Part shown: one piece after another, positions 4,050 through 29,473 of the stretch
How positions within the stretch are numbered: position 1 is the first letter of the stretch
Layout of the letters: each line of letters begins with the position of its first letter
From: an uncultured Actinomycetota bacterium
GTDB lineage: Bacteria > Actinomycetota > Actinomycetes > Mycobacteriales > Cryptosporangiaceae
Direction of reading: 5' to 3'
DNA: 32,000 nucleotides
Assembly: GCA_963742725.1 (NCBI GenBank)
Contig: CAVUMX010000003.1
Coordinates: forward strand, 225,087-257,086
Program-made: the position numbers and the translations under genes
The notes under the pieces: model-generated
The model's database searches: none
What the model was told of the DNA's origin: nothing
Seen by the model: the letters and a program-made list of their open reading frames with translations, nothing else

Positions 4050-4062
4050 GGACGTACCTCCA

Positions 4063-7764: not shown

Positions 7765-7797
7765 GATCAACAATCATCCCTTCGTCCCTAGCGGTCT

Positions 7798-10307: not shown

Positions 10308-10310
10308 CAG

Positions 10311-10700: not shown

Positions 10701-10781
10701 CAGGCTCAACGTGGCGTCCCTGGGGCGGCGTGCCTGAACGACCACGGTGACCGTACGCAAAGCCGCAGGTACGCTGGGTCG

Positions 10782-13566: not shown

Positions 13567-13863
13567 CTAGACGCAGCGGGCCTGGATCAGGACGTACGCA
13601 CCCCACCAGTTCGGGCCGAGCTGGTGCGCGCCGCCGGACGTGTTGAGCACGGTGCAGGTCGTGCCGGTCTCGGCCTCGTGGGCTGCCTTGTCGGCGTTGG
13701 CCTCGGCGGCGGCGCCGGCCCGCGCCGCGGCCTCGGTGGTGCCCTCGTCGCCGCCCGCGAAGTAGCGTGGGTACGACGGGGCGGCGGTAGCGGGTGCCGC
13801 CGTCGCGCCGGCAAGCGCCAGGCCGAGCACGATCGGGACGAGTGCGGTTCGGATTGAGCGCAT
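13567..13863 (-). CDS. small secreted protein of unknown function (98 aa, signal peptide, 2 Cys)
   Basis: ATG at 13863. MRSIRTALVPIVLGLALAGATAAPATAAP is a Sec-type signal peptide. The mature part carries Cys70 and Cys97. The gene sits 53 nt downstream of dxs on the same strand. I recognise no family. Confidence 0.6.
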   Translation of the reverse strand: MRSIRTALVPIVLGLALAGATAAPATAAPSYPRYFAGGDEGTTEAAARAGAAAEANADKAAHEAETGTTCTVLNTSGGAHQLGPNWWGAYVLIQARCV

Positions 13864-13916
13864 GGCGATTCCTCCAAGGACGTGGTGCGACCGGCCGCCC
13901 CCATGAACGGCCGGAG

Positions 13917-15677
13917 TCAGAGCGCGCGGATTGTCCGGGCGATGCCCGCCGCGTCGAGGCCCAGTTCGGCCAGGATCGCGCCGCGCGAACCGTGCGGCAG
14001 GAAGTTCCGCGGCACGCCGAGCACATGCAGCGGCGTGGCGACACCGGCGTCGTGCAGCGCCTGGCCGAGCAGCGACCCGACGCCGCCGGTCCGGCCGCAG
14101 TCCTCGACCGCGACCACGTGCCGGTGCGCGGCGGCGAGTCGGACCAGTTCCGGCGGGACCGGCACCGGCCAGCGTGGGTCGACCACGGTCACGCCGGGCA
14201 GGGTGCGCGCGGCGGCGACGCCGGCTGAGGCGAGCGCGCCGACGGCGACCAGCAGGACGTCCGGCCGCTCGCCCCGGACCAGCACGTCCACCCCGCCGGC
14301 CCGGCCGACGGCGGGCACCGGGTCGCCGACGGTGGCCTTCGGGTACCGGACCACGGTCGGTGCGTCCGCCACCCCGACCGCCTCCCACAGCGCGGCCCGC
14401 AGCTGGTCGGCGTCGCGCGGGGCTGCCACCCGCAGCCCGGGGATCGGCGCGAGCAGCGACAGGTCCCACATGCCGTGGTGGGACGCGCCGTCCTCGCCGG
14501 TGACGCCGGCCCGGTCGAGGACCACGGTGACCCCGCAGCGGTGCAGGGCTGCGTCCATCAGTAGCTGGTCGACCGCGCGGTTCAGGAACGTGGCGTAGAG
14601 CGCGACCACCGGGTGCAGGCCGCCCAGCGCCAGGCCGGCGGCCGAGGCGAGCGCGTGCTGCTCGGCGATACCCACGTCGAAGACCCGGTCCGGCCGGGCC
14701 TGCGCCATCGGGTGCAGCCCGACCGGGCGGAGCATCGCCGCGGTGATGGCGACCACGTCGGGGCGGGTCGCGGCGATCTCGGCCATGGTCTCGGCGAACA
14801 CGTGCGTCCAGGTGCGGCCGCCGGCGGTGCGCGGCCGGCCGGTGAGCGGGTCGAGCTGGCCGATGCCGTGCATGTGGTCGGCGAGGTCGCGCTCGGCGGG
14901 GCGGTAGCCGCGGCCCTTGCTGGTGACGCAGTGGACGACGGTGGGCCGGCCGCGCGCGTCGGCGCGGCGCAACGCCGCCTCCAGCGCGGGCACGTCGTGG
15001 CCGTCGACCGGGCCGAGGTAGTCGAAGCCGAGCGCCTCGAAGATGGTCCACGGTTCGCCGGTGCCGGCGCGCAGCCGGCCCAGGTGCTCGGCGAGGCCGC
15101 CGACGGTCGGGCAGTACGAGCGGCCGTTGTCGTTGAGCACGATGACGACCCGGCCGTGCGGGTTGCGGCTCAGGTTGTTCAGCGCCTCCCAGGCCATGCC
15201 GCCGGTCAGCGCGCCGTCGCCGACGATCGGCACCACCCGCCGACCGGACTCGCCGCGCAGGTGGAACGCCTTCGCCAGCCCGTCGGCGTAGGACAGCGCG
15301 GTGGACGCGTGCGAGTTCTCGATGACGTCGTGCGCGCTCTCGTCGCGGCTCGGGTAGCCGGACAGCCCGTGCCGCTGGCGGAGGGTGGACAGGTCGCGCC
15401 GTCCGGTCAGGAGCTTGTGGACGTACGCCTGGTGGCCGGTGTCGAAGAGCAGCGCGTCCTGCGGCGAGTCGAAGACCCGGTGCAGCGCGATGGTCAGCTC
15501 GACCACGCCGAGGTTCGGCCCGAGGTGGCCACCGGTGGCGCAGACCCGCTCGACCAGGATCTCGCGGATCTCGGCGGCGAGCGGAGAAAGCTGGCTGTCG
15601 TTGAGTTCGCGCAGGTCGGCGGGGTGGCTGATCCGGTCGAGGAGCGGGTAGGAGACCGGGGCGGCGTAGGCGACCAT
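13917..15677 (-). CDS. dxs: 1-deoxy-D-xylulose-5-phosphate synthase (MEP pathway)
   Basis: The 586-aa product is collinear with DXS: [29 protein letters not shown], thiamine-diphosphate motif [16 protein letters not shown]...[13 protein letters not shown] and [15 protein letters not shown]. The start A at 15677 is shared with the ispG TGA. Confidence 0.95.
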
Positions 15678-16848
15678 CAGTGCACCTCCACCCGGACGCC
15701 ACCGGTCAGCTCGGCCAGCTCGTCGGGGAGGTCGGCGCCCATCTCCTCAGCCAGGCGCAGCGCTTCGTAGATCAGGGTTTCCACGATCTGGGACTCGGGC
15801 ACGGTTTTGATGACTTCGCCCTTGACGAAGATCTGGCCCTTGCCGTTCCCGGAGGCGACCCCCAGGTCGGCCTCACGCGCCTCACCCGGGCCCGTTCACC
15901 ACGCAGCCCATGACCGCGACCCGCAGCGGCACCGGCAACCCTTCCAGCCCGGCGGACACTTCCTCAGCCAACGTGTAGACGTCGACCTGCGCACGCCGCA
16001 CAGGAGGGGCAGGACACGATCTCCAGACCACGCTCGCGTAGACCCAACGATTCCAGGATCTGGTTACCGACCTTCACCTCCTCCACCGGCGGCGCCGACA
16101 GCGAGACCCGGATCGTGTCCCCGATCCCCTCAGCCAGCAGCGCCCCGAACGCCACCGCCGATTTGATGGTGCCCTGGAACGCCGGCCCGGCCTCCGTCAC
16201 ACCAAGGTGCAGCGGATAGTCACACGCCGCCGCCAACTGCCGGTACGCCTGCACCATCACCACCGGGTCGTTGTGCTTCACCGAAATCTTGATGTCCCGG
16301 AAATCGTGCTCCTCAAACAGCGAGCACTCCCACAACGCCGACTCCACCAACGCCTCCGGCGTCGCCCGCCCATACTTCTCCAGCAGCCGCTTATCCAACG
16401 AGCCGGCGTTCACCCCGATCCGGATCGGCACCCCCGCCCCCGCCGCCGCCCGCGCGATCTCCCCGACCTTGTCATCGAAGGCCTTGATGTTGCCCGGGTT
16501 CACCCGCACCGCCGCACACCCCGCCTCGATCGCCGCGAACACATACTTCGGCTGGAAATGAATATCGGCGATCACCGGAATCGGGGACTTCCGCGCGATG
16601 ATCGGCAACGCCTCCGCGTCATCCGCCGACGGCACCGCCACCCGCACGATCTGACACCCGGCGGCGGTGAGTTCCGCGATCTGCTGCAACGTCGCGTTGA
16701 TATCCGTCGTCGGCGTCGTCGTCATCGACTGCACCGACACCGGCGCATCCCCACCCACCAACACCGACCCCACCCTGATCTGACGAGACCGACGACGCAC
16801 AGCAAGCTTCGCAACGGGCAGGGCGGGCATGCCAAGCGAGAGAGTCAT
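15677..16848 (-). pseudogene. ispG: 4-hydroxy-3-methylbut-2-enyl diphosphate synthase (IspG/GcpE) interrupted by two +1 insertions in its 3' quarter (pseudogene or sequencing errors)
   Basis: From the ATG at 16848 the frame gives 294 aa of clear IspG ending ...[20 protein letters not shown] (stop at 15964). Dropping one base near 15998 restores [40 protein letters not shown]. Dropping one base in the C-run at 15885-15887 restores [37 protein letters not shown]...VEVH* (stop at 15677-15679). The span is 1172 nt, i.e. 390 codons plus 2. Confidence 0.85.
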
Positions 16849-18257
16849 GGCTTCACCTCGAGTGCGGTCTCCTCGGGTGTCGCTTTCCACCCGTCGTCGG
16901 AACTGCTGGTGCGGTTCGGGAGCAGTGCGGCGAGCAGCGCGCCGGCGAGCGCGACGGCGACCAGCAGCCACACGGTGTCGTGGAACGCCGTCACGCCGGC
17001 GGCCCGCGCCTGGTAGAACGCGGCCACGCCGGCGATGCCGAGCGAGCCGCCGACCCGTTGGACCACGTTGAACAGCGTGCTGACGTCGGTCACGTCGGCT
17101 GTGCTCTGGCGGGTCAGCATGCCGGTGATGAGCGGTTGCAGGGTCAGGCCCAGGGCGGCGCCGCGCCCGGTGAGCAGCAGCGCGATCAGCCACGGCGGCG
17201 TCTGCGCGGACACCGTGAGCAGCAGCGCGGTGGTCGCGGTGAGCACGGCCATCCCGCTGACCACCGTGGTCCGCAGCCCTACCGCGGCGATCAGCTTCTC
17301 GCCCAGCCCCGAGCAGAGCCCCATCGCGATGCCCTGCGGGAAGAGCACCAGGCCGGCGACCAGGGCGGAGTGGCCCTGCACCTGCAACGTGAAGATCGGG
17401 ATCAGGAACAGCACGGCGAACAGCACCACGGAAGCGACGACGCACACCGCCACCGCGACCCGGCTGCTCCGGTCGGCGAGCAGTCGCAGCGACACGGCCG
17501 GGTGCGCGGTCCGGCGTTCGTGGGCGAGGTACCCGGCGAGCAGGATCAGTCCGGCCAGGCAGCACGGCCAACCGTCGAGCGCGTCCCAGCCATCGCTGGT
17601 GATCACCGACGCGCCGTATGTGGCCAGCGTCGCACCGGCGGCCAGCATGGCGAGTCCGCGCAGGTCGAGCGGGGACCGGTCGGTGGTCGGCGGGTCGGGC
17701 GCGAGTTTGCGCGCACCGAGCAGGCCGATCGCGACCAGCGGCACGTTGATCAGGAAGATCGGCCGCCAGCCCGTGGACGCGGTGATCAGGCCGCCGATGG
17801 TCGGACCGAGTGCCGGGGCGAGGAAGAAGAACATCCCGGCCATTACCGGGGGCCGCATCTTGCCGCCGCCGCCGAAGAGCAGCGAGAGCGCGAGCGGGAT
17901 CAGCGGCGCGCTGGCCACCCCCTGCAACGCCCGCAGCCCGATCAGCGCCTCGATGCCCGGCGCGGCGGCACAGGCGGCCGAGGCGAGCCCGAACGCGACC
18001 AGCGCCGCGAGGTACGTACGCCGGGTGCCGTACCGGCGGGCCAGCCACGCCGTCGCCGGCAGTGCCGCGGCGATGCCGAGCAGGTAGGCGCTGACCGTCC
18101 AGCCGACGGCCGCGAGTGAGGCGTCCAGCTCGCGGGCGATCGTCGGCACCGCCACGTTCACCGCGTTCGAGTCCACCATGGACACGAAAGGGCCGCAGAC
18201 CAGCCCGATCAGCACCAGCGCGGACGGCCGGGCCGGCGCGCGCTCAGTGGGGGACAT
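16845..18257 (-). CDS. MFS transporter, DHA2 (EmrB/QacA-like) drug/metabolite exporter
   Basis: Multi-TM protein with the typical DHA2 N-terminus ([21 protein letters not shown]..., [11 protein letters not shown]). The ATG at 18257 is preceded by GAGGAGGA; the ORF track uses a GTG at 18275. Its stop overlaps the ispG ATG (ATGA), and its start overlaps the monooxygenase 3' end by 14 nt. Confidence 0.9.
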
Positions 18258-19548
18258 GGCGGTCCTCCTCGCCACGCCGCTGCAGGGGAAGCGCGGGCAT
18301 CGTGCCAGCCCGCGGATCGGGGAGCAGCCCGAGCTGCACCAGCCGGTCCACCCTGGTGAAGCGGTGCACGCCCAGGCCGGACATGTTGTACGTGATGATG
18401 AACTGGAGCCGCCGGTTGCGCCGGTTGCGCTGCAGCACGTGCCGGCCCAGCACCTGGCCGCGCCAGCCGGTGTCGGTGAACAGCGTGGCGAGGTTGTGGC
18501 TCAGCCGCGAGACGTAGTCGATCCGGGGCCGCCGCACCTGGTCGTACCGGGACAGCGCGGCGTCGATGACCGCGGCGGTGAGCCGGTCGGCGCCGGCCAG
18601 TTGCTCGCTGAGGGTCCAGGCGTCGGCGATGGCGGCGTTCATGCCCTGGCCGGCCATCGGGTGCACGCAGTGCGCGGCGTCACCGAGCAGCGCCAGGCCG
18701 GGCCGGGTCCAGGTGGGGGCATTGAACCGCCACGCGGCCAGCGCCTGGGCGCTCGCCACGCCGTCCCGCAGCCGGTCGGCGATCGGGGCGAGCGCGGGCA
18801 CGGTGCGCAGCAGCCAGCCGATCCAGACCGGCAGCCCCGGCCTGCCGATCCGCCGGAACTCGCCGCCCGGCAGCTGCACGTAGAGCCGGGCGCGGTCACC
18901 GGGCATCGGGAAGAGCAGGCGCAGGCCGTCCCTGGTGAGGTGCGCGACCACGTCGTCGCCGAGGCCGGTGACCCCGGTGAGGTCGAAGCCGATCAGGTCG
19001 TGCGGGTACCGGGTGCGCTCCACGGCGATGCCGGCGTCGGTGCGGATCCGCGAGGAGTTGCCGTCGCAGCCGACGACCAGGTGGGCGTCCACGTCGGTGC
19101 GCGCGTCCCCGTCGGCGAGCCGCACGCCGACCACCCGGCCGGCGCCGTCGCAGCGGAGCCGTTCCACCAGCACCCCGGAGCGCACCTCCACGCCGTCGCC
19201 GGGCTCGGTGCCGATCGCCGCCTTGATGTCGGCGTAGTAGTGCACCAGGCAGTGGTCGAACGGCGGCGGCAGCAACCGGTAGTCCAGCGCGCCCACCTCG
19301 ACGCCGTCGGCCGTGCGGCAGGCCAACCGCGGCGCCCGCAGCGCACCCCGGGCGGCCAGCCGCGGCAGCGCGCCGAGCCCGTCCAGGATCTGTACCGAGC
19401 GAGGCTGCAACAGCTCTCCCTTGTGGACCGGCGCGGGCACGGGCTGCTTCTCCACGAGCAGCACCCGCCGCCCCTGCCGGGCGAACGCACGGGCGGCGGT
19501 GAGCCCACCCACACCGGCGCCGCAGACCACCACGTCGTAGTCGCGCAT
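18244..19548 (-). CDS. FAD-dependent (class A flavoprotein) monooxygenase
   Basis: 434 aa from the ATG at 19548 with YDVVVCGAGVGGLTAARAFARQG (GxGxxG), GCDGNSSRIR (DG motif) and LLGDAAHCVHPMAGQGMNAAIADA (GD motif). The rest of the 724-aa track ORF is Arg-rich read-through into the cyclase gene. Confidence 0.9.
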   Translation of the reverse strand: MRDYDVVVCGAGVGGLTAARAFARQGRRVLLVEKQPVPAPVHKGELLQPRSVQILDGLGALPRLAARGALRAPRLACRTADGVEVGALDYRLLPPPFDHCLVHYYADIKAAIGTEPGDGVEVRSGVLVERLRCDGAGRVVGVRLADGDARTDVDAHLVVGCDGNSSRIRTDAGIAVERTRYPHDLIGFDLTGVTGLGDDVVAHLTRDGLRLLFPMPGDRARLYVQLPGGEFRRIGRPGLPVWIGWLLRTVPALAPIADRLRDGVASAQALAAWRFNAPTWTRPGLALLGDAAHCVHPMAGQGMNAAIADAWTLSEQLAGADRLTAAVIDAALSRYDQVRRPRIDYVSRLSHNLATLFTDTGWRGQVLGRHVLQRNRRNRRLQFIITYNMSGLGVHRFTRVDRLVQLGLLPDPRAGTMPALPLQRRGEEDRHVPH

Positions 19549-21218
19549 CACGCCGCTCCGGCGCGGTACCGGCCGAGTGCCTGGAGCGCGAACCCGTCGG
19601 CGATGTGATCGCACCAGTAGGTCAGGCCAAGGAAGTAGATGCCGACGAACGTCGCGGGCCAGCGCCCGTCCGGACGCTGCCGCGCCAGCAACCAGGCCAC
19701 CCCCGCACGGACCGCCGCCGAGCCGGCCTGCCCCGCGGCGATCAGCCCGAGCACCGCCCACGCGGTCTCCTCCACCGAGGGCGGCGCGGAGACTCCGTCG
19801 CCCCAGCCGCCGTCCTCGTGCTGGTGGGCGAGCAGCCAGTCGCGGCAGCCCACCGCGGTGGCGGTGCCGGCCAGGCCGAGCTGCCCGAGCGCGTCGAGCA
19901 CCCGCGCCGTGCCCGCGGTGTTGCCGCGGAACCAGATGTTGGCGAACGCGCCGTCGGACCGCTGCGTCCTGGCGAACCAGCGCACCGCCTTGGCCAGCGC
20001 CGGCTCGCCGGGCAAGCCGCCGGCCGCGTTTAGGCCGAGTACGGCGTGCGCGGTCATCACCGAACACGGCGAGTCCATCGAGACGCCCGCGTTGCTGGCG
20101 AAGCAGCCCCACGAGCCGTCCCGGTTCTGCATGGTGCGCAGCCAGTCGACGCCTTTTCGCAGGGCCGCCTCGTCGCCGCCGAGCTGAGCCAGCACCCCGA
20201 CCGCGCACGCGGTGTCGTCGGTGTCCGGCCAGCCCGAGGGCAGCGACCAGCCCCACCCGCCAGCGGGCGCACCGGTCGGCGGGAACGGGTCGGGGCGCTG
20301 GCAGCGGCGGATCCAGTCCGCGGTCCCGGCCAGCTCGGCGCGGTCGACACCGGCGTCGCGCAGGCCCTGCGCCACGTACATGCTCACCGAGAACTCGATG
20401 TCCCGATCGACCGGCCACGACCCGTCGGCGCGGACGGTGGCGCGTAGGTAGCGGACGTAGTCGTGGGCGAGGTCGAGCCCGACGCCGGCGCGCACCAGCC
20501 CGACGCAGACGATCGAGGCCATCAGCGCGGACTCCTCAACGCCGCCGGGACGATCCGGATCGCTGCTCTCGTACGCGTGGATGTCGGCGAGGTAGCGCAG
20601 CGCCTTCGGCTCGGCGAGCCGGTCCAGGCGGCGGCGCAGCGGGCCGGTGCGGCGGGTCCGCGCCTGCATCACACCCCACGACATCAGCCCGGGCACGGTG
20701 AACGAGAGCCGCTGGCGGAGCCGGCGCGGCAGCAGCACCAGCTCCAGCGGCATCCGGTCGATCCGGGCCGCGTCGTACAGGCCGGCCAGCGCGAGGTACT
20801 GCTGGCAGACCGCCTTGAGCGTGCACAGGGTCTTGTCCTCGACGGCGGCCATCCCACCGAACTCGCCGATCCGGGCGAGGCCCCGGGTGACCGCGAACAC
20901 CGACCGCTCCGGCTGGACCAGTTGCAGCGCGGCAACGGCGATCGCGGTGGCGTTCAGCGTGCTCGGTCCGTCTGGTGCGTCGCCCCAGCCGCCGTCCGCG
21001 GCCTGGGTCTCGCGTAACCAGCCGGCGCCGCGTACCACCAGCTCGCCGGAATCGGCCGCGAGGTGCAGCGCGATCACGGCCGATCCGGTGGACACGGCGG
21101 ACGAGGGCAGCGTGCCCTGCCACGAGCCGTCCGCACGGCGCAGGGCGAACAGCCCGTCGACCGCCGCCGCGATGCCCCGGTCCACCGTCTCGACAGCGGG
21201 TAACCGCACGCCGGTCAC
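19548..21218 (-). CDS. squalene-hopene-cyclase-family class II terpene cyclase, unusually short (556 aa)
   Basis: The GTG at 21218 forms a GTGA overlap with the SCP2 stop. DxDD motif GWPDTDDTACAV (codons at 20214-20225). Multiple QW repeats (LRETQAADGGWGD, LRTMQNRDGSWGC, ARTQRSDGAF, LLAHQHEDGGWGD, LLARQRPDGRWP). The C-terminus ...YFLGLTYWCDH..FALQALGRY parallels SHC. Confidence 0.88.
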   Translation of the reverse strand: MTGVRLPAVETVDRGIAAAVDGLFALRRADGSWQGTLPSSAVSTGSAVIALHLAADSGELVVRGAGWLRETQAADGGWGDAPDGPSTLNATAIAVAALQLVQPERSVFAVTRGLARIGEFGGMAAVEDKTLCTLKAVCQQYLALAGLYDAARIDRMPLELVLLPRRLRQRLSFTVPGLMSWGVMQARTRRTGPLRRRLDRLAEPKALRYLADIHAYESSDPDRPGGVEESALMASIVCVGLVRAGVGLDLAHDYVRYLRATVRADGSWPVDRDIEFSVSMYVAQGLRDAGVDRAELAGTADWIRRCQRPDPFPPTGAPAGGWGWSLPSGWPDTDDTACAVGVLAQLGGDEAALRKGVDWLRTMQNRDGSWGCFASNAGVSMDSPCSVMTAHAVLGLNAAGGLPGEPALAKAVRWFARTQRSDGAFANIWFRGNTAGTARVLDALGQLGLAGTATAVGCRDWLLAHQHEDGGWGDGVSAPPSVEETAWAVLGLIAAGQAGSAAVRAGVAWLLARQRPDGRWPATFVGIYFLGLTYWCDHIADGFALQALGRYRAGAA

Positions 21219-22872: not shown

Positions 22873-22912
22873 CTGACCCCCCTTCCCTGGTGTGCCCGCG
22901 CCCGGGGCGCGG

Positions 22913-23674
22913 TCAGCGTCTGAAGATCCGGGTGCGGTAGGTCCACACCAGGTAGGCCAGCCCGAACAGGACGACCGCGTACAGCGCGCCCTGCCCGAGG
23001 TAGCGGTACACGTTGGTGACGTCGGTGAAGACCGCCGTCTTCAGGGCCTCGACGGCCGGCCAGTAGACGAGGTACTTCTCCGCCTCGGCACCGCCCCGGC
23101 CGAGCGCCATCTGGATGCCGGCGACCGCGATGATCACCATCGCCGCCTCGAACTCGCGCGGGATCAGCAGCCCGACGAGTGTGCCGAGAGCGACCCCGAT
23201 GAAGCCGATCAACAGCAGCGCCAGCGCGGTGAGCAGGACAGAGTGCACGTCCACCAGCGGCACGAAGATCGCCAGGAAGACGAGCGTCGAGATGAGCGTG
23301 ATCATCGCCAGCACCGCGAGCCGGGCCGACAGCAGCTGGTGCGGCCGGTATCCGACCAGGCGCAGCCGCCGCATCACCGCCGTGCTGCCGAGCACCGTGG
23401 TCAGCGCGGCGAACGAGCTGGTCACGCTGATGCCGAGGACGGCCAGGTAGAGCGCCTTGAACGCCCGGTCGTTCACCTGCAGTTCGGTGAATCCGTCGCC
23501 GGTGAAGACGTTCGCCGGTGCCACCTCGGTGGCGTCGCTGGTCAGGTAGCTGACCAGGAAGTACGAGGCCGGCATGAAGATCATGAACAGCACGGTCGGC
23601 CAGCGGCGCAGCAGTTCGCGCAGGAACATGCCGGTCGCGACGGGCGTGGCCCGGTGCGGAGTCGTCGTGGTCAT
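22913..23674 (-). CDS. ABC-2 type transporter permease
   Basis: 253 aa with about 6 hydrophobic segments. It is translationally coupled (ATGA at 23671-23674) to the upstream ABC ATPase, the classic ABC-2 exporter pair arrangement. Confidence 0.8.
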   Translation of the reverse strand: MTTTTPHRATPVATGMFLRELLRRWPTVLFMIFMPASYFLVSYLTSDATEVAPANVFTGDGFTELQVNDRAFKALYLAVLGISVTSSFAALTTVLGSTAVMRRLRLVGYRPHQLLSARLAVLAMITLISTLVFLAIFVPLVDVHSVLLTALALLLIGFIGVALGTLVGLLIPREFEAAMVIIAVAGIQMALGRGGAEAEKYLVYWPAVEALKTAVFTDVTNVYRYLGQGALYAVVLFGLAYLVWTYRTRIFRR

Positions 23675-24366
23675 GCGGCACCGCCCGCGACCTGGTCGGC
23701 CAGCCGGCCGCTCGCGACGACCCGGCCCTGCACCAGGTCGAGCATCGCGTCGAACCGGTCCTTCTCCGAGTGCATGTGACTCACCACCGCGACCGCGCCG
23801 CCGTCACGCCGGAACTGTTCGGCGTAGGCCCAGAACTTCAGGTAGGTGTCGTAGTCGAAGCCCTGGTAGGGCTCGTCGAGGATGAGCACGTCCGGGGTGT
23901 GCAGCAGCGAGGCGATCAGGTTCACCTTCTGCCGGGTACCGCCGGAGAGCCGGCTGACCCTGGTGCCGGCGTACTGGGTGCAGCCGAACGTCTCCATCAG
24001 CTCGCCCGCGCGGGCGGACACCTTCTCGGCGGTCAGCCCGTAACCGGCGCCGAAGAGGCGGAGCTGCTCGGCGATGGTCAGCGCGTCCAGCAGCGACGGC
24101 TCCTGCGGGCAGTAGCCGATCGAGCCGCTGACCAGGATCTCGCCTGAGTCCGGGCCGAGCAGGCCGACCAGGCATTTGAGCAGCGTGGACTTGCCCGCAC
24201 CGTTCTCGCCCTCGATGCCGACCAGGGTGCCGGCCGGTATCGAGAAGGTGACGTCGGTGAGCACCCGCCGCCGCCCGTAGCGCTTGGCCACGCCACGGAC
24301 GGAGACGGCGGGTGCCCCGGCGGCACCACGGCCGGCCGTGGGCCGAGCCTCCTCGTGCGTATGCAT
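23671..24366 (-). CDS. ABC transporter ATP-binding protein
   Basis: The ATG at 24366 is preceded by GAGAAGGAAG. Walker A GENGAGKST, signature LSGGTRQK, Walker B VLILDEP. Confidence 0.93.
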   Translation of the reverse strand: MHTHEEARPTAGRGAAGAPAVSVRGVAKRYGRRRVLTDVTFSIPAGTLVGIEGENGAGKSTLLKCLVGLLGPDSGEILVSGSIGYCPQEPSLLDALTIAEQLRLFGAGYGLTAEKVSARAGELMETFGCTQYAGTRVSRLSGGTRQKVNLIASLLHTPDVLILDEPYQGFDYDTYLKFWAYAEQFRRDGGAVAVVSHMHSEKDRFDAMLDLVQGRVVASGRLADQVAGGAA

Positions 24367-24451
24367 TCGGACTTCCTTCTCATTTGGGGTATCAATCACG
24401 CAGCCACCGTACGAGAACCGGGCGGCCACCGGTACCTGCTTCATCCGCAAT

Positions 24452-25726
24452 TCACCACGTCACCGGCACCGCCTCCGGTGCCTGCGCCGCGGTCTCGGTC
24501 AGCCAGCGCACCTCGTCGTACGGCACCGCCAGCCGCAGCTCGGGGAACCGCCGCAGCAGCGCGCCGAACCCGAGCTGCAGTTCCATCCGGGCGACCGGCG
24601 CGCCGAAGCAGAACGCCGGGCCGCTGCCGAAGGTCAGGTGCTGGTTCGCGGTGCCCCTGGTGATGTCGAACCGCTCAGCGCCGGCGAAGTGCGCGTCGTC
24701 CTGGTTGGCGGCGTGCCTGGCGACCAGCACGGTCGCGCCCGCCGGGATCAACACGCCGCCGATCTCGACGTCCGCCGTGGCGTACCGGCTGATCCCGTAC
24801 CCGTTGCCCGGCGGCGTGCGGCGCAGCATCTCCTCGGTCGCCGACTCGACCAGCGCGCCGCCGGCGAGAATGTCGTCCCGGAGCGCGGCGAACTGGTCCG
24901 GATGCCGGTGCAGCAGCAGGAAGCCCTTGCCGATCTCGGCCGCGGTCGTCTTGTAGCCGGCGACCAGCAGCGTCATCACCGTGATCCACAGCTCTTCCTC
25001 GGTGAGCCGGCCGTCTTCCTCGTCGGCCACCGCGACCAGCCCGCTGAGCAGGTCGTCCGCCGGTTCGCGGCGCTTGGCGGCACTCAGCGCCTTGGCGTAG
25101 TCGATCAGCGTGCCCGCCGCGCCCGCCCGGTCCGAGGGATCGTGGTCGCTGGAGAGCATCGTGTCCACCCAGTCGCGGAACTGCGCCTGGTCGGCGACCG
25201 GGACGCCGAGCATCGTGCAGATGACCGTGATCGGCAGCGGGTAGGCGAACGCGGCCATCAGGTCGGCCGGCGGGCCCTGCGCGGCCAGCTTCTCGACCAG
25301 GTGGTCCACAGTGGCCTGGATCCGCGGGCGCATCGCCTCGACCTGGCGCGGGGTGAACGCTCTGGCCACCAGCCGGCGCCAGCGGGTGTGCACCGGCGGG
25401 TCGGCGAACGGGTTGCCGTAGTTGCCGAACCCGATCGCGGTCTTCATCCTGGCGGCGTCGGGCCGATTGAGGTCGCGGCTGAACCGTACGTCGGACAGCA
25501 CCGCGCGCACGTCGGCGTACCGGGTGACCAGCCAGGCCCGGTCGCCGCTGGGCAGCGTCACCGTCGTGACCGGATCGTGCTCGCGCAGCCAGCCGTACTC
25601 CGCCTGGATGTCCAGCGGGTCGGCCTTGGGGAACGGGAAGCGCATCGGGCACCCTGGCCTGTTCACAGCCTCGGCGTTCGCAGGCCCTGCGTTCTCGGGC
25701 CCTGCGTTCACGGGCTCGGCGCTCAT
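24452..25726 (-). CDS. cytochrome P450 monooxygenase
   Basis: 424 aa from the ATG at 25726, which forms an ATGA overlap with the fusion-gene stop. I-helix LLVAGYKTTAAEIG, ExxR (EEMLRR), heme loop FGSGPAFCFGAPVAR. The 1250-aa track ORF is this gene plus an out-of-frame shadow of the upstream gene. Confidence 0.93.
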   Translation of the reverse strand: MSAEPVNAGPENAGPANAEAVNRPGCPMRFPFPKADPLDIQAEYGWLREHDPVTTVTLPSGDRAWLVTRYADVRAVLSDVRFSRDLNRPDAARMKTAIGFGNYGNPFADPPVHTRWRRLVARAFTPRQVEAMRPRIQATVDHLVEKLAAQGPPADLMAAFAYPLPITVICTMLGVPVADQAQFRDWVDTMLSSDHDPSDRAGAAGTLIDYAKALSAAKRREPADDLLSGLVAVADEEDGRLTEEELWITVMTLLVAGYKTTAAEIGKGFLLLHRHPDQFAALRDDILAGGALVESATEEMLRRTPPGNGYGISRYATADVEIGGVLIPAGATVLVARHAANQDDAHFAGAERFDITRGTANQHLTFGSGPAFCFGAPVARMELQLGFGALLRRFPELRLAVPYDEVRWLTETAAQAPEAVPVTW

Positions 25727-28329
25727 CGGGCGGTCCTCCGTAGTCCGGGCGCGCCGGCGGTGGCTTCGACTGCTTCGACGGCGGCGAGCAGCGCGGCGGG
25801 ATCCACCGACCGGCCCCGCTCGCCCTCGTCCTTGACGTGCCGCAGCAGCGCGCCGACGACCTGCTCGGTGGCCGTGACGCCGTGCTGTTCGAGCACGGCC
25901 TCCACACAGCTGCGGCCGGAGTGCTTGCCCAGCACGATCTGCCGGGTGGCGCCGATCCGCTCGGGCGGGTACGGCTCGTAGGTGCTCGGGTCGCGGAGCA
26001 GGCCGTCGACGTGCAGGCCGCTCTCGTGCGTGAACGCGTGGCGGCCGAGCACCGGCTTGTTCACCGGGATCGGCACGCCGGTGGCCGCCGAGACCGCGTT
26101 CGCGAGGGGTACGAACGCGGTCAGGTCCAGGCCGGTGTCGATGCCGTGCGCGACCTCCAGCGCGAGCGCCAACTCCTCCAGCGCCGCGTTGCCGGCGCGT
26201 TCGCCGACGCCGAGCACCGAGCCCTGCGCGCCGGACGCGCCGGCGCCGAGCCCGGCGAGGGAGTTGGCGGTGGCCAGCCCGAGGTCGTCGTGGCAGTGCA
26301 CGCCGACCGGGACGCTCACCGCGTCCGCCACGGTCCGCACCAGGTGGGCGAAGCCGGCCGGGTGGGCAACGCCGGCGGTGTCCGCGACGCCGACCGCGTC
26401 CGCGCCGGCGCCGATCGCGACGCCGTACATCTCCAGCAGGAAGTCCAGGTCGGTCCGGACCGCGTCCTCGGCGGCGAACACCACTGCGACGCCGGCCGAC
26501 TTGGCGTGCGCCACGGCGGTGGCCACCCGCTCCAGCAGGGCCGGCCTGGTGGTGCGGAGCTTGCGCAGGACGTGCGCGTCGGAGGTACCGACGAAGATCG
26601 CGACGCTGTCCACGCCCGCGCGCACAGCTGCGTCCACATCGGACTCCAGCGGCCTGGCGATGGCCTGGGTGACCGCGCTGAGCCCGAGGGCCGCCACCTC
26701 CCGCACCGCCGCCGCCTCCGCCGCGCTCACCGCCGGGAACCCGGCCTCGACCAGCCCGACGCCGAGCCGGTCGAGCAGGAGCGCGATCTCGACCTTCTGC
26801 GCCACGCTGAACGCCACGCCGGGCATCTGCTCGCCGTCGCGCAACGTGGTGTCCCCGAGCACCACCCGTGCGGGCAGAAGGGTGGCGGCGGGCGCCGGCT
26901 CCGGGGCGCGAAGCGAGGTGACGACCGGCGCCGGCGTGCTGCGCGACGCGGTGGTGGGCGCCGGTTCGGGGACGCTGCGCAGGAACTCGGCGAAGATCGC
27001 GTTGGCGTGCACCATGTCGGCGGCGCTGCCGTCGAACCGCAGGCGGCGGGCGAGGAACGCGCGGCGCGGGTTGGAGCGCCGGGTGAGGAAGACGTCGGCG
27101 AACACCGTGCCGGTCGTGGTGACCACCACCTCCGGCCGGTCGTCGGGTTCGTCCGCGCGGCGCAGCGTGCCGTCGCCGGAGATCAGCCGGACTTCGTGGT
27201 CGAGATCGGTGAGCACCACCCGGATCAGTCGGCGCCACGAGACCAGTCCCCGGAGTGGACGCTCCAGCGCGGACAGCCGGGCGAGCTGCGTGTCCACGTA
27301 CCGGTCGACGTCGTCGGCGGTGACCTGCTCGGGCGCGCCGTCGCGCTCGTGCCGCTGCCGCAACGCCCGCTCGGCGACGACGGTGGCCAGCGCGGCGGCG
27401 GCCGTGGCGGCCAGGCCGACGACCGCGCCCAGGCCGAGCGTGACGAACGCTCCGGCCAGCACCACACGCTCCACCAGCAGGATGCTGTGCGCCCGCAGCG
27501 CCACCACCCGCAGCGTGCCGCGCTCTGCGGCGGGCTCGGCGCCGGGCGGCTCGGCGGCGAGTGCCGCGATCAGTCCGAACGCGCGGCCGCCGGCCAGCAG
27601 TGCGATCCCGGCCAGCGCCGCCGCCGCCACCCGCGCGCCCTCGGCCGTGAGCACCGTGGCGACCGCGAGCGTGGCGGCGAGCAGGTAGCAGCCGAACGCC
27701 AGCCGCCGGGCCGCCGCGATCCCGTGCTGGACGGGCACCGTCCGGTACCCGCCGGCGCGGTCCCCGTCGACGTCGCGGATCGTGCCGACCAGATTGCTCG
27801 CGGCGTCGTGTGCCCACACCGCGGCGGCCGGCAGCAGCAGTGCCGCCGTCGGCCAGGTGGTCACCACCATCCCGCCGAACACCACGACCGCCGCGGTCAT
27901 CCCGCCGCGGACCAGGTTGCCCAGCACGCCGTGCGCCTTGAGCAGCCGGCTGTACCCGATCCCGGCCGCGAGGGCGGCGACCGCCACCAGCACCGTGCGC
28001 GGGTTGGCGACGGCGGCGAGCGCGGCGCCGCCGGCCACGCAGATCCACATCGCCGCCCAGGCCGTGCCGGCGGCCATCCGCCCGGACGGGATCGGGCGCG
28101 CGGGTTTGGCGATCCGGTCCAGCTCGCGGTCGAAGTAGTCGCCGCCGTACAGGCCGCCGATCCAGGCCAGGGTCGGCACCGCCCAGGCGACGGCGTACCG
28201 CCACGGCGCGGCCGACGCGTCAGCGAGCGCGGCCCCGGCCAGGCCGACCAGGCCGATGTAGAACACCGTGTAGGGGCGCCAGGTCTCGAGGTGGGCGAAC
28301 AGTCGGGTGGCGAGGCGTACGCGGGACAC
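25723..28329 (-). CDS. tri-domain fusion: UbiA-superfamily prenyltransferase (membrane) + SCP2-like domain + homocitrate/2-isopropylmalate/citramalate-synthase-like (DRE-TIM, HMGL-like) domain
   Basis: The GTG at 28329 lies 10 nt after the upstream TAG and follows GGGGG. aa 1-320 are hydrophobic and carry YGGDYFDRELDRIAKPARPIPSG and IRDVDGDRAGGYRTVPV. aa 335-452 read VVLTDLDHEVRLISGDG...VVVTTTGTVFADVFLTRRSNPRRAFLARRLRFDGSAADM. A Pro/Ala linker follows. aa 487-868 carry DTTLRDGEQ, HCHDDLGLATANS, GERAGNAALEE and THESGLHVDG. One uninterrupted 868-codon frame. Confidence 0.85.
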   Translation of the reverse strand: MSRVRLATRLFAHLETWRPYTVFYIGLVGLAGAALADASAAPWRYAVAWAVPTLAWIGGLYGGDYFDRELDRIAKPARPIPSGRMAAGTAWAAMWICVAGGAALAAVANPRTVLVAVAALAAGIGYSRLLKAHGVLGNLVRGGMTAAVVVFGGMVVTTWPTAALLLPAAAVWAHDAASNLVGTIRDVDGDRAGGYRTVPVQHGIAAARRLAFGCYLLAATLAVATVLTAEGARVAAAALAGIALLAGGRAFGLIAALAAEPPGAEPAAERGTLRVVALRAHSILLVERVVLAGAFVTLGLGAVVGLAATAAAALATVVAERALRQRHERDGAPEQVTADDVDRYVDTQLARLSALERPLRGLVSWRRLIRVVLTDLDHEVRLISGDGTLRRADEPDDRPEVVVTTTGTVFADVFLTRRSNPRRAFLARRLRFDGSAADMVHANAIFAEFLRSVPEPAPTTASRSTPAPVVTSLRAPEPAPAATLLPARVVLGDTTLRDGEQMPGVAFSVAQKVEIALLLDRLGVGLVEAGFPAVSAAEAAAVREVAALGLSAVTQAIARPLESDVDAAVRAGVDSVAIFVGTSDAHVLRKLRTTRPALLERVATAVAHAKSAGVAVVFAAEDAVRTDLDFLLEMYGVAIGAGADAVGVADTAGVAHPAGFAHLVRTVADAVSVPVGVHCHDDLGLATANSLAGLGAGASGAQGSVLGVGERAGNAALEELALALEVAHGIDTGLDLTAFVPLANAVSAATGVPIPVNKPVLGRHAFTHESGLHVDGLLRDPSTYEPYPPERIGATRQIVLGKHSGRSCVEAVLEQHGVTATEQVVGALLRHVKDEGERGRSVDPAALLAAVEAVEATAGAPGLRRTAR

Positions 28330-28339
28330 CGGCAGCCCC

Positions 28340-29473
28340 CTACTCGACGCGTTCGACCGCGGCGGTGACCATCGCGGCGAGCCGGTCCCGCGACGGCGAC
28401 GGCGCGAGCACCCCCAGCGCGTCCAGCGCGGTCCCGGCGTGCTGCGCCACGATCCTGCCGGCCTCCGCGAGCGCGTCGGTCTCCGCGAGCAGCCGCTGGA
28501 CCAGCTCGAACGTGCGCACCTCGGCGGCCTCGGAGCCGAAGCCGGCGGCCGCGTCGTCGAACGCCCGCTGCAACGACTGCCCGACCTCGGGCGGACCGAG
28601 CCGGCAGGCCACGATCAGCGGGAACGTCATGCGGCGGTTGCGGATGTCGCTGAGGAGATCCTTGCCGGCCACGCCGCTGCTGCTGCGGTACGCGAGCAGG
28701 TCATCGACCATCTGGAACGCGATCCCGAGCTGGTCGCCGTAGCTGGCCAGGGCGGCGACCTGGCGTTCGGTGCCGCCGCCGAGCAGGGCGCCCACCTCGC
28801 AGGCGCCACGGAACAGGGCGGCGGTCTTGCCACGCACCGTGTCGAAGTAGGCGTCCAGCCCGGCGCCGGCGTCGCCGCAGAGCTTCGCCTCCGAGGTCTG
28901 GCCGCGGCACAGGTCGACGCCTGCACTGGCCACGGCCCGAAGCGACGCGACGATGCGGTCGGCCGGGACACCCCGGTCGGCACACTCCGAGAGCGCCAGG
29001 AACAGCCGGAACAGCAGCGTGTCGCCGACCACGATGGCATGGTCGCGGCCGTACGCGGCGGGCACCGAGGGCCGGCCGCGGCGCATCGCGTCACCGTCGA
29101 TGATGTCGTCGTGGATCAGGCTGGCGACGTGGCCGTACTCGGCGCCCAGCGCGGCCGGCACGGCGTGCTCGACCTCGCCGCCGACCGCGGCGCACGACTC
29201 GAGCAGCAGGTACGGGCGGAACAGCTTGCCGGGCGGCCGCACCGCGTACCGGCACATCGCGTCCAACTCGTCGTCCGGGTCCCAGCCGCCGGCGATCTCT
29301 GCCTGCAGCACGCCGGGTTCGAGCGCACTCACCGTGTCGGTCAGCGCGGCGGCGTGCAGCCTGACACCGTTCAACCCGACGCCGTTCGGACCGGTGCCGT
29401 GAGTGGCTGTCTCACCTGAGCCCGTGTTGGTTAACGCGGAAATGTCCGCCGTCGCCGCAGCCGTCGAATCCAT
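28340..29473 (-). CDS. polyprenyl diphosphate synthase (third paralogue; DDxxD-type first motif)
   Basis: The ATG at 29473 is preceded by GGGGGG. Motifs SLIHDDIIDGDAMRRGRP and FQMVDDLLA. Small residues (A, S) sit at -5/-4 of the first motif. The ORF-track start at 29527 is a TTG with no ribosome-binding site. Confidence 0.88.
   Translation of the reverse strand: MDSTAAATADISALTNTGSGETATHGTGPNGVGLNGVRLHAAALTDTVSALEPGVLQAEIAGGWDPDDELDAMCRYAVRPPGKLFRPYLLLESCAAVGGEVEHAVPAALGAEYGHVASLIHDDIIDGDAMRRGRPSVPAAYGRDHAIVVGDTLLFRLFLALSECADRGVPADRIVASLRAVASAGVDLCRGQTSEAKLCGDAGAGLDAYFDTVRGKTAALFRGACEVGALLGGGTERQVAALASYGDQLGIAFQMVDDLLAYRSSSGVAGKDLLSDIRNRRMTFPLIVACRLGPPEVGQSLQRAFDDAAAGFGSEAAEVRTFELVQRLLAETDALAEAGRIVAQHAGTALDALGVLAPSPSRDRLAAMVTAAVERVE

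Follow-up and report, generated by a model that had tools for sequence, protein, structure and literature searches.

The minus-strand genes running from position 29473 down to position 13917 of the window (the whole 32,000-nucleotide stretch of DNA that was analysed) form one compact unit, probably an operon that directs the synthesis of a cyclic meroterpenoid for export by the pathway proposed below. The cluster is best read as a variant of the phenalinolactone/tiancilactone/atolypene type. A polyprenyl synthase, a UbiA prenyltransferase, a flavin epoxidase and a class II cyclase constitute the core of the phenalinolactone, brasilicardin, tiancilactone, atolypene and longestin clusters, and reconstitution has shown that the four enzymes suffice for core formation, with the UbiA enzyme adding a C3 2-oxo-acid unit (PMC11317874, PMC11600129). 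In the window, the polyprenyl synthase, UbiA domain, cyclase and monooxygenase share 43, 45 (over 326 aa), 40 and 45% identity, respectively, with proteins encoded in the same order in a locus of Streptomyces sp. CB03238, a tiancilactone producer (PMC10301674). This locus, the only one on which the comparison with known producers is based, also contains genes for a Trp halogenase and a Trp dioxygenase, in keeping with the chloroanthranilate moiety; it is presumed to be the tiancilactone locus. The suggestion in the earlier note that the pathway is an undescribed one thus has to be given up, since the four-gene core matches a known meroterpenoid cluster family.

All ORFs of the operon lie on the minus strand, and their GC3 values are in the range of 0.90–0.96, with the exception of ispG. 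Re-examination of the coordinates reproduced all twelve junctions listed earlier, including ATGA overlaps at 25723–25726, 23671–23674, 21691–21694 and 16845–16848, a GTGA overlap at 21215–21218, one-base TGATG overlaps at 19548 and 15677, a 14-nt overlap at 18244–18257, a 10-nt gap at 28330–28339, and larger gaps of 85, 40 and 53 nt. Start/stop overlaps are frequent in high-GC actinomycete operons, and the compactness is real, yet by itself not unusual; the arrangement is more than chance because the gene order is conserved in other genera. The genes would be transcribed as a single transcript. Upstream of the first gene, a non-coding AT-richer region (29474–29800, minus strand) is the presumed promoter region: GC content is 0.63 across 29–30 kb versus 0.70–0.78 in the operon, and none of the ORFs in this region displays a coding GC3 signal, while a consensus promoter scan returned no match. 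The operon is delimited by this region upstream and by a convergent histidine-kinase gene downstream. A second terpenoid cluster adjoins the operon. Of the 13-gene operon described previously, the compact unit at 13917–29473 stands, but the last ORF (13567–13863, minus strand), encoding a small predicted secreted protein of 98 aa with a signal-peptide-like N-terminus, has no Pfam match and no homologue in nine related loci, and probably lies outside the conserved cluster. The gene content given in the earlier note was borne out by Pfam and NCBIfam searches, and both of its SCP2 assignments hold as well, on the evidence described below.

A check for co-conservation of these genes, proposed in the earlier note, was positive. 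The synthase, the fusion protein described below (with P450 and/or ABC genes), the radical SAM enzyme, the SCP2 protein, the cyclase and the monooxygenase are found together in the window, in Acrocarpospora phusangensis and Prauserella shujinwangii, and in one metagenome contig each from JGI and ENA; these five loci span different genera as well as metagenomes. Equal longest-contig sizes point, indirectly, to at least 15 further fusion-bearing contigs that also carry a close cyclase homologue. Overall, the cluster is rare, its distribution is patchy, and its architecture varies between genera: a fusion-bearing locus of Kibdelosporangium is without the cyclase, and those of Nocardia transvalensis and Streptomyces sp. 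HC44 are without the radical SAM and SCP2 pair. Since such loci exist, the fusion is not strictly tied to the later steps.

The second gene of the operon encodes a tri-domain fusion of 868 aa (25723..28329, minus strand), consisting of UbiA, SCP2-like and isopropylmalate synthase (IPMS)/homocitrate-synthase-like DRE-TIM domains. The Pfam domains UbiA, HMGL-like and HCS_D2 were identified in it, and the AlphaFold2 model (mean pLDDT 84) comprises three confident domains and a disordered linker at residues 456–482. A total of 54 full-length family members (clusters) were found among 5.8 billion proteins, in many actinomycete genera. The UbiA domain (residues 1–329; 27343..28329) is the counterpart of PlaT3, AtoD and TnlT3; its Asp-rich motif YGGDYFDRxLD (D64, D67, D71) is invariant, and in the PDB it most closely matches DGGGP synthase (E = 3.5e-14). 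Between this membrane domain and the soluble domain lies the SCP2-like lipid-binding domain (residues 338–450; 26980..27318), which, scanned alone, scored 24.6 bits against Pfam SCP2 (cut-off 21.3); the middle domain matched this family in 13 of 16 fusion members. The C-terminal Claisen-condensing domain (residues 485–858; 25756..26877) reached 415 bits with an NCBIfam IPMS subfamily, matched IPMS 3RMJ and homocitrate synthase 6KTQ in the PDB (E = 1e-70), and is 40–47% identical to genuine archaeal and bacterial IPMS and homocitrate synthase enzymes.

The fold, the LRDGEQ, HxH, GERAGNA and HESGxH motifs, and the HCS_D2 subdomain are common to this domain and to the IPMS, homocitrate and citramalate synthases LeuA, NifV and CimA, and the catalytic and metal residues R497, D498, E621, H678, H680 and H773 are invariant. 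In contrast to these enzymes, the domain has no LeuA regulatory domain, is preceded in the polypeptide by a membrane prenyltransferase and by an SCP2 domain, and has a side-chain pocket composed entirely of small residues. The pocket residues A577, A619, G647 and A649 correspond to H97, S139, N167 and P169 of E. coli LeuA, in which the substitutions H97A, S139G, N167A and P169A admit larger 2-keto acids (PMC3370425). The A/A/G/A combination is present in all 53 fusion members compared and in none of 80 unfused relatives. However, homocitrate-synthase-like relatives also differ at these positions, so a lipid substrate does not follow from the pocket changes by themselves. The domain scored under every NCBIfam equivalog cut-off, and its substrates are accordingly putative.

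The first gene of the operon encodes a polyprenyl diphosphate synthase of 377 aa (28340..29473, minus strand; Pfam polyprenyl_synt, E = 3e-53), the counterpart of PlaT4 and AtoC, with 45–51% identity to the synthases of fusion-bearing loci. The chain length of the product cannot be read from the context of its FARM motif, HVASLIHDDIID. The FAD-dependent monooxygenase of 434 aa (18244..19548, minus strand) contains FAD_binding_3 and a squalene-epoxidase domain (Pfam SE, 36.2 bits; cut-off 20.1); it corresponds to the epoxidases PlaT1 and AtoF, and is 60% identical to its homologues in loci L084 and L081. The class II (SHC-fold) terpenoid cyclase of 556 aa (19548..21218, minus strand; Pfam SQHop_cyclase_N and _C) shares 61–67% identity with the Acrocarpospora and Prauserella cyclases. 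Motif alignment and a motif census revealed that its motif is canonical, D332-T-D334-D335-T-A (DxDD), whereas NFLDSAN is found at the CB03238 locus and the literature consensus for such cyclases is xxx(E/D)(T/S)xE (PMC11600129). In this motif, the enzyme departs from the characterised epoxide-opening cyclases, which counts against our preferred explanation. A UbiA–cyclase fusion was observed in Polymorphospora, and the UbiA and cyclase steps are linked by virtue of this fusion.

Downstream of the ABC transporter genes, a radical SAM/SPASM enzyme of 393 aa is encoded (21691..22872, minus strand; Pfam Radical_SAM and SPASM) with the cluster motif CNLKCYYC. Its best family matches, all far under the cut-offs, are AhbD, NirJ and peptide maturases, and its best PDB matches are SkfB, BlsE and PqqE; its identity across related loci, 74–81%, is the highest of any protein in the cluster. 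A stand-alone SCP2-fold protein of 159 aa (21215..21694, minus strand), whose gene always adjoins the radical SAM gene, was identified by AlphaFold2 modelling with Foldseek and by profile comparison. Its model (pLDDT 87.5) retrieved mostly SCP2 proteins among the top 44 PDB matches of Foldseek, including UbiJ-SCP2, as well as C-terminal alkylsulfatase domains of the SCP2 type; Pfam SCP2 matched 15 of the 18 family members. A common helix–strand pattern and an hhalign comparison (probability 95%, E = 2e-8) relate it to the SCP2 domain of the fusion. Like UbiJ and other polyprenyl-holding SCP2 carriers, it has the SCP2 fold and occurs beside enzymes handling polyprenyl intermediates. Unlike in those carriers, the SCP2 unit here has a radical SAM partner or is built into a prenyltransferase–synthase fusion; identity among the SCP2-protein matches is 11–19%, and the family is tiny, with 18 representatives among 1.84 billion proteins.

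The remaining genes of the operon encode a tailoring oxidase, exporters and enzymes of precursor supply. The cytochrome P450 of 424 aa (24452..25726, minus strand; Pfam p450) is 68 and 54% identical to those of the Acrocarpospora and Prauserella loci, respectively. The DrrA-like ABC transporter ATPase of 231 aa (23671..24366, minus strand; Pfam ABC_tran; NCBIfam drrA subfamily, 137 bits) and the ABC-2 type permease of 253 aa (22913..23674, minus strand; Pfam ABC2_membrane, 29.6 bits, cut-off 26.9) have counterparts in L084 (72 and 67% identity, respectively) and L090 (65 and 58%). A DHA2-family MFS efflux permease of 470 aa (16845..18257, minus strand; NCBIfam TIGR00711, 237.9 bits, cut-off 230.2) is 67% identical to the MFS protein in the same position of L084. 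Extra copies of two MEP pathway genes complete the unit: ispG/gcpE (15677..16848, minus strand; Pfam GcpE, E = 3e-113 over the first 294 aa) and dxs (13917..15677, minus strand), whose product of 586 aa, the first MEP enzyme, contains DXP_synthase_N, Transket_pyr and Transketolase_C domains and is 58–65% identical to those of dxs genes beside related clusters. The length of ispG, 1172 nt, is not a multiple of three, and the gene reads through three frames; comparison with the intact Acrocarpospora gene revealed two 1-nt insertions (+1 frameshifts), near 15999 and 15885, and the overlap at 15677 is present only in the third frame. This copy is either a pseudogene or the result of an assembly error. 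The frameshifts had been missed in the earlier note.

Three other explanations of these data were considered. The two activities of the fusion could operate in the opposite order, with the DRE-TIM (HMGL-like) domain making or holding a carbon nucleophile for UbiA; this would be metal-bound enolpyruvate from pyruvate or oxaloacetate, serving as the C3 prenyl acceptor without extension of the product. The source of the C3 unit is unsettled in the known pathways (PMC11317874, PMC11600129). Enolpyruvate is handled by DRE-TIM oxaloacetate decarboxylase, pyruvate carboxyltransferase and 4-hydroxy-2-oxovalerate aldolase, which are among the weaker matches of the domain, and in unfused tnl-type loci a gene of the fumarylacetoacetate-hydrolase family, located beside the synthase and UbiA genes, might play a corresponding role. 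This family includes oxaloacetate decarboxylases. Nevertheless, we regard such an order as rather unlikely: the domain is far nearer to the acetyl-CoA-dependent enzymes, with E values from 1e-70 to 1e-124 for IPMS and homocitrate synthase and an HCS_D2 subdomain, while the decarboxylase and aldolase matches have E = 1e-8 or weaker; the HESGxH motif retained in it is that of Claisen-condensing enzymes; pyruvate needs no pocket enlarged at all four side-chain positions; and PlaT1-4 and AtoC-F function in heterologous hosts without a helper enzyme of this kind. It is distinctly less probable that the gene run is a mosaic of separate functions, with an insertion for RiPP-like maturation and export, made up of the ABC-2 genes, the radical SAM/SPASM gene and the gene of the small protein, that has no relation to the terpenoid genes. 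Radical SAM enzymes with a SPASM domain act mostly on peptides, the widest gaps inside the unit, of 85 and 40 nt, lie on either side of the ABC genes, and the module is absent from other fusion-bearing loci, but the small protein has a confidently predicted SCP2 fold, homologous to that of the fusion, and is no precursor peptide. Moreover, four of the five loci with this synteny have the radical SAM–SCP2 pair placed between fusion and cyclase, closely spaced or without gaps (in L090, the SCP2 gene and the cyclase are separated by a gene of the TauE family), and Prauserella, in whose locus the ABC genes are absent, keeps the pair among the terpenoid genes.

Instead of a secreted specialised metabolite, the product could also be a structural membrane terpenoid, acting as a hopanoid-like or archaeal-lipid-like surrogate; the earlier note spoke of a membrane-terpenoid pathway and argued against a hopanoid cluster. 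The latter judgement agrees with our data, since the cyclase reached 133 bits against the squalene-hopene cyclase equivalog (cut-off 431), squalene-synthesis genes of the SQS_PSY/HpnCDE type were absent among the window ORFs scanned, and the radical SAM enzyme is of the SPASM rather than the HpnH type. An SHC-fold cyclase with DxDD and nearby dxs and ispG genes occur both here and in actinomycete hpn clusters, but a cyclase of 556 aa, a UbiA enzyme, an epoxidase, a P450 and exporters distinguish the operon from them. The motif and fold of the cyclase, the DGGGP-synthase-like nearest solved structure and several database names of UbiA, the role of SCP2 proteins as lipid carriers, and dedicated MEP genes suggesting high flux would all suit a membrane lipid. 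However, the rarity of both protein families, the different architectures in different genera, the P450 and two drug-type efflux systems, the second terpenoid cluster next door, the lack of squalene-synthesis and hopanoid genes in the window, and the correspondence of the core to the locus of an antibiotic (tiancilactone) producer speak against such a lipid; nothing points to a structural role, and we consider it the least probable of the three. The other part of the earlier interpretation, a cyclised, oxidised and exported polyprenyl conjugate, agrees with the data.

For an exported meroterpenoid, the chemical steps, their order, the chain length and the product could be as follows. The extra dxs and, if intact, ispG would supply more isoprenoid precursor, and the polyprenyl synthase would form a diphosphate, assumed to be in the range of C20–C25. 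The membrane-embedded UbiA domain would attach the polyprenyl chain to an acceptor of the C3 2-oxo-acid type, in line with proposals for PlaT3 and AtoD (PMC11317874, PMC11600129), yielding a polyprenyl 2-oxo acid; the literature has yet to name the acceptor of these two enzymes, which might also be an amino acid (PMC11317874). The fused SCP2 domain may then extract the lipid tail from the membrane and offer the 2-oxo-acid head to the IPMS-like domain, which would condense it with acetyl-CoA to a 2-(polyprenylmethyl)malate-type head group, a reaction replacing the transamination or lactone formation of known pathways. Epoxidation of the terminal alkene would fall to the flavin monooxygenase, after which the class II cyclase would fold the chain into rings; since the full DxDD motif is kept, a start from the unepoxidised alkene is possible in principle. 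The P450 would oxidise the scaffold, the radical SAM/SPASM enzyme may perform a further radical step on the lipid held by its dedicated SCP2 partner, and the DrrAB-like ABC-2 pair and the DHA2 MFS permease would export the product.

A literature search for the fusion-bearing sub-type retrieved no paper or product. With the pla, tnl, bra and ato clusters of perhydrophenanthrene meroterpenoids, the operon shares the four-gene core and P450 tailoring, and extra dxs and ispG genes also lie beside a tnl-like Polymorphospora locus. It differs from these clusters in the absence of an aminotransferase and a lactone-forming dioxygenase and in the presence of an ABC-2 exporter, while the tri-domain fusion of UbiA with SCP2 and IPMS-like domains, the radical SAM/SPASM enzyme paired with a rare SCP2 protein, and the cyclase keeping DxDD (DTDDTA) appear to be new features of this family.

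The operon on the minus strand lies in high-GC actinomycete DNA, whose nearest named relatives are Acrocarpospora, Sphaerisporangium, Streptosporangium and Actinomadura (Streptosporangiales). An earlier note, based on the sequence only, had described it as a translationally coupled unit of 13 genes at 13567–29473. All of the junctions listed there proved exact, including four ATGA, one GTGA and two TGATG overlaps, a 14-nt overlap, a 10-nt gap and gaps of 85, 40 and 53 nt, and the gene functions that it named were borne out by Pfam and NCBIfam. The figure of 13 genes has to be revised: translation gave clean ORFs for 12 of them, ispG being frame-broken, and the 13th ORF (13567–13863), encoding a small signal-peptide protein, has no counterpart at any of the related loci compared. 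The conserved unit is 13917–29473, and the operon has both of its ends within the window. The GC3 values are 0.90–0.96 in all operon genes except ispG.

The ispG sequence (1172 nt) is spread over three reading frames, and comparison with the intact Acrocarpospora gene placed two single-base insertions, one within the SCPSC/GRAQ iron-sulfur motif (TGTG[C]GGC) and one in a G run (CCCGG[G]TGAGG). Since ispG in a related ENA metagenome contig, L090 (positions 100–1500), is likewise frame-broken in the same part of the gene, around the CxxC iron-sulfur motif, an assembly artefact is as likely as real decay of ispG. The indels differ between the window copy (15850–16020) and that of L090, and the gene is intact in isolate genomes; the breaks in the two contigs may stem from a long-read error that recurs systematically in this sequence context, or a redundant copy may have decayed in parallel in both.

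The region of about 1 kb upstream of the operon (29474–30530) is comparatively AT-rich (GC about 0.63), with no convincing ORF, Rfam match or recognisable regulator gene found in it, and the next real gene upstream (30530–31084, GC3 0.97) gave no family match. Promoter/terminator, Rfam and tRNA scans yielded nothing informative. Convergent with the operon is an 834-aa ORF on the plus strand (10782–13286, GC3 0.93), in which a LacI-type periplasmic-binding-like sugar-binding domain is joined to HisKA_3 and HATPase histidine-kinase domains, an unusual sensor architecture.

The early steps of phenalinolactone, brasilicardin and atolypene biosynthesis were reconstituted only in 2024, and the cyclic core was found to need, and to need only, a polyprenyl synthase, a UbiA prenyltransferase, a flavin epoxidase and a class II cyclase; prenylation and epoxidation precede cyclisation, the UbiA enzyme attaches a three-carbon 2-oxo-acid unit whose source is still unknown, and related uncharacterised clusters are numerous (PMC11317874, PMC11600129). 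All four core enzymes are encoded in the window operon. A search with its UbiA domain recovered the UbiA protein of Streptomyces sp. CB03238, one of two tiancilactone producers (PMC10301674). The CB03238 locus (L087) carries synthase, UbiA, cyclase and monooxygenase genes in this order, as well as genes for a Trp halogenase and a Trp dioxygenase, in keeping with the presence of chloroanthranilate in tiancilactone; from the strain and the gene content, we infer that it is the tiancilactone (tnl) cluster. The corresponding four window proteins are in the same order and are 43, 45, 40 and 45% identical to those of L087, the only locus of a known-compound producer compared directly, and the Asp-rich motif is kept in the UbiA domain. 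The core of the window operon therefore represents a known kind of cluster, and the pathway cannot be called undescribed, as the earlier note had done; its assignment, at the family level, to the phenalinolactone-type meroterpenoid clusters, whose products are built on a perhydrophenanthrene core, appears quite probable. The residues preceding the first Asp-rich motif of the polyprenyl synthase do not decide the chain length of the product. The window operon differs from the phenalinolactone, tiancilactone, brasilicardin and atolypene clusters in that its UbiA enzyme forms the N-terminal third of an 868-aa fusion protein (25723–28329, minus strand).

The other half of the original reading, that this is not a hopanoid cluster, holds. 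The cyclase scored 133.1 bits against the squalene-hopene cyclase equivalog TIGR01507, far under the cut-off of 431.1, and is 556 aa long compared to about 630 aa for squalene-hopene cyclases. No SQS_PSY or amine-oxidase gene of squalene synthesis (HpnC/D/E) was present among the window ORFs scanned, nor was an HpnH-type radical SAM enzyme found in the cluster, whose radical SAM protein is of the SPASM type with best matches to AhbD, NirJ and peptide maturases. Assignment as a hopanoid cluster was rejected on these grounds.

In the cyclases of phenalinolactone-, tiancilactone-, brasilicardin- and atolypene-type clusters, a non-canonical single-acid motif, xxx(E/D)(T/S)xE, replaces DxDDTxx, and a single acidic residue is conserved in all seven clades of AtoE-like cyclases analysed (PMC11600129). 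The window cyclase lacks this motif and has a canonical one, D332-T-D-D-T-A-C; the same columns of the CB03238 cyclase read N-F-L-D-S-A-N. Among the 120 nearest cyclase homologues, (D/E)xDD was found in 71, NxDD in 26 and a single acid only in 15. Since the AtoE-like clades are all of the single-acid kind, the clade of the window cyclase departs from their defining motif. In another group of cyclases, comprising one from Nocardia transvalensis (locus L086, 12520–14283) and three more (P0177, P0179 and P0180) from Kitasatospora and from another contig, N-(T/S)-G-N-T-G-D takes the place of DxDD, leaving the usual catalytic positions without an acidic residue. The genes of these proteins adjoin fusion genes; the proteins either use another acid or are not cyclases in the usual sense.

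Another set of terpenoid genes is located at 3225–10307 (minus strand) and has a GC3 of 0.67–0.73 versus 0.93–0.96 for the host-like genes. Its 506-aa class II cyclase is encoded together with a polyprenyl synthase, a P450, an SDR, an aldehyde dehydrogenase and a HAD phosphatase. This cyclase has a canonical DSDDTA motif and the bacterial type II diterpene cyclase 6VPT as its best PDB match (E = 6e-63), and the set has the appearance of a labdane/clerodane-type diterpenoid cluster gained by horizontal transfer. An ispH/lytB gene (426 bits versus the NCBIfam equivalog cut-off of 420), overlapped by a third polyprenyl synthase gene, lies at 18–2233 (minus strand), so that, with dxs and ispG, the window has three extra MEP-pathway genes, in addition to three polyprenyl synthases. 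The same gcpE-dxs-synthase-lytB set is found at the tnl-like Polymorphospora locus.

An AlphaFold2 model of the 868-aa fusion (mean pLDDT 84, pTM 0.49) comprises a helical membrane domain (residues 1–329), an alpha/beta domain (338–450), a disordered linker (456–482), and a TIM barrel with an HCS_D2 subdomain (489–858); given the low pTM, it is uncertain how the domains are placed relative to each other. The middle domain alone scored 24.6 bits against Pfam SCP2 (cut-off 21.3), a threshold also passed by 13 of 16 homologues. The fusion is a conserved family, with 54 full-length members at 90% clustering from Actinomadura, Streptomyces, Kitasatospora, Amycolatopsis, Prauserella, Kibdelosporangium, Nocardia, Acrocarpospora and Paractinoplanes, as well as from a Frankiaceae and a Pseudonocardiaceae MAG and from soil metagenomes. 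We found no publication in the open-access literature on a fusion of UbiA with an isopropylmalate/homocitrate synthase (IPMS/HCS) or on a cluster sub-type bearing it.

The C-terminal domain matches isopropylmalate and homocitrate synthases with E-values of 1e-70 to 1e-124 (1e-70 for IPMS/HCS structures in the PDB), and falls below the curated equivalog cut-offs (415 bits versus 517 for the IPMS subfamily and 373 versus 463 for NifV). All catalytic motifs of this domain are invariant across the fusion family, and the counterparts of E. coli LeuA R13, D14, E141, H202, H204 and H300 are retained in 53 of 53 members. The domain has a DRE-TIM fold with the metal-binding, 2-oxo-acid-binding and acetyl-CoA-enolising residues present. 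The substrate pocket, in contrast, is different: H97, S139, N167 and P169 of LeuA correspond to A577, A619, G647 and A649 of the fusion, all four being small residues. This A/A/G/A combination occurs in all 53 fusion proteins and in none of the 80 closest unfused IPMS/HCS genes, 43 of which have H/S/N/P. These controls came from a scan of a genome collection with the fusion alignment, which, being keyed on universal IPMS motifs, returned only ordinary LeuA/HCS genes. In LeuA, the substitutions H97A, S139G, N167A and P169A admit progressively longer 2-keto acids (PMC3370425).

No protein of the cluster is more strongly conserved than the radical SAM/SPASM enzyme (21691–22872, minus strand), whose identity is 74–81%, and the adjacent gene (21215–21694, minus strand) encodes a 159-aa protein whose family numbers 18 representatives among 1.84 billion proteins. 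Alone, the 159-aa protein scored only 12.6 bits against Pfam SCP2, while 15 of the 18 family members match it. A profile of all 18 sequences aligned to the SCP2 domain of the fusion with an hhalign probability of 95% (E = 2e-8), compared to 2% in an earlier comparison with three sequences only. The top matches of its AlphaFold2 model (pLDDT 87.5) in a Foldseek search of the PDB were mostly SCP2 proteins, including UbiJ-SCP2, with E-values down to 1e-6; SCP2-type C-terminal domains of alkylsulfatases were also among the matches. An SCP2 fold is predicted for both the 159-aa protein and the middle domain of the fusion. Because this fold is confidently predicted, interpretation of the 159-aa protein as a RiPP precursor was rejected.

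Co-conservation in other genomes, which the earlier note had proposed to examine, was observed: five loci share the order synthase, fusion, (P450/ABC), radical SAM, SCP2, cyclase and monooxygenase. Besides the window, these are a JGI soil contig (fusion 67% identical), Acrocarpospora phusangensis, where an MFS pump and a divergent gcpE-dxs pair are added, Prauserella shujinwangii, and the ENA contig L090, with ispH, dxs and gcpE and a TauE-family gene between the SCP2 gene and the cyclase. In Kibdelosporangium, only the synthase and the fusion were found, beside dxs and gcpE. In Nocardia transvalensis and Streptomyces sp. HC44, the fusion occurs with a KAS III-like gene, an acyl-CoA-ligase-like gene and a monooxygenase, and both loci are devoid of the radical SAM and SCP2 pair; the cyclase was confirmed in Nocardia only, since the HC44 contig stops just after the P450. 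Loci L085, L086 and L082 represent this second fusion architecture, in which a KAS III-like (ACP_syn_III_C) gene replaces the pair; L085 and L086 have an AMP-binding gene, and mevalonate-pathway kinases are present in Nocardia. This points to a head group elaborated in another way.

Related clusters without this fusion present other arrangements. A tiancilactone-like cluster of Polymorphospora sp. (L089), also carrying Trp halogenase, Trp dioxygenase and TauD genes, encodes a 926-aa fusion of UbiA with a class II cyclase (9269–12049), an independent tie between prenylation and cyclisation. In tnl-type clusters with unfused UbiA, a fumarylacetoacetate-hydrolase-family gene lies immediately 5' to the synthase or UbiA genes (8090–8971 in L087 and 8331–9242 in L089). 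Since this family includes oxaloacetate decarboxylases, one could speculate that its product is the source of the C3 acceptor in tnl-type clusters.

From the anatomy, homologies and conservation of the cluster, we infer a pathway in which the UbiA domain would form a polyprenyl 2-oxo acid, as has been suggested for PlaT3 and AtoD, the UbiA enzymes of the phenalinolactone and atolypene clusters. The SCP2 domain of the fusion would take this lipid out of the membrane domain and over to the soluble TIM barrel, where its condensation with acetyl-CoA would yield an alkylmalate-type head group; epoxidation, cyclisation and P450 oxidation would follow, the radical SAM enzyme could perform a radical step on the SCP2-held lipid, and the ABC-2 and MFS pumps would expel the product. 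That the fused synthase domain carries out such a Claisen extension is a tentative proposal, falling a little short of an even chance. In the main rival reading, the DRE-TIM domain would furnish the enolpyruvate nucleophile to the UbiA domain; the domain, however, is much nearer to synthases that depend on acetyl-CoA than to decarboxylases and aldolases that handle enolpyruvate, and pyruvate would need no widened pocket. A role of the operon product as a structural lipid is unlikely, given the rare and patchy distribution of the cluster, neighbouring genes that differ between genera, and the presence of a P450 and two efflux pumps. Returning to the Claisen extension, its full elaboration into a new meroterpenoid branch is distinctly more doubtful: here a UbiA-derived 2-oxo acid would be channelled by the built-in SCP2 domain into a wide-pocket IPMS-like domain to yield terpenoid alkylmalates, the SPASM radical SAM enzyme would act on an SCP2-presented lipid rather than a peptide, and the DxDD cyclase would close the rings.

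The fusion of UbiA to a domain condensing acetyl-CoA with 2-oxo acids is a strong and testable hint as to what UbiA releases. If the reading as a new meroterpenoid branch is correct, the fusion would also be direct proof of 2-oxo acid release by PlaT3/AtoD-type enzymes, which bears on the question of their prenyl acceptor. The small residues of the fusion pocket occupy the same positions that engineers shrink in LeuA for long 2-keto acids, and the fusion points to unexplored, possibly new, head-group chemistry. The radical SAM and SCP2 pair would likewise be unusual, as a SPASM enzyme whose lipid substrate is held by a carrier protein. Among cultivable actinomycetes, for example, Acrocarpospora, Prauserella, Nocardia, Streptomyces, Kitasatospora and Amycolatopsis, several dozen related clusters are candidates for the production of new bioactive terpenoids.
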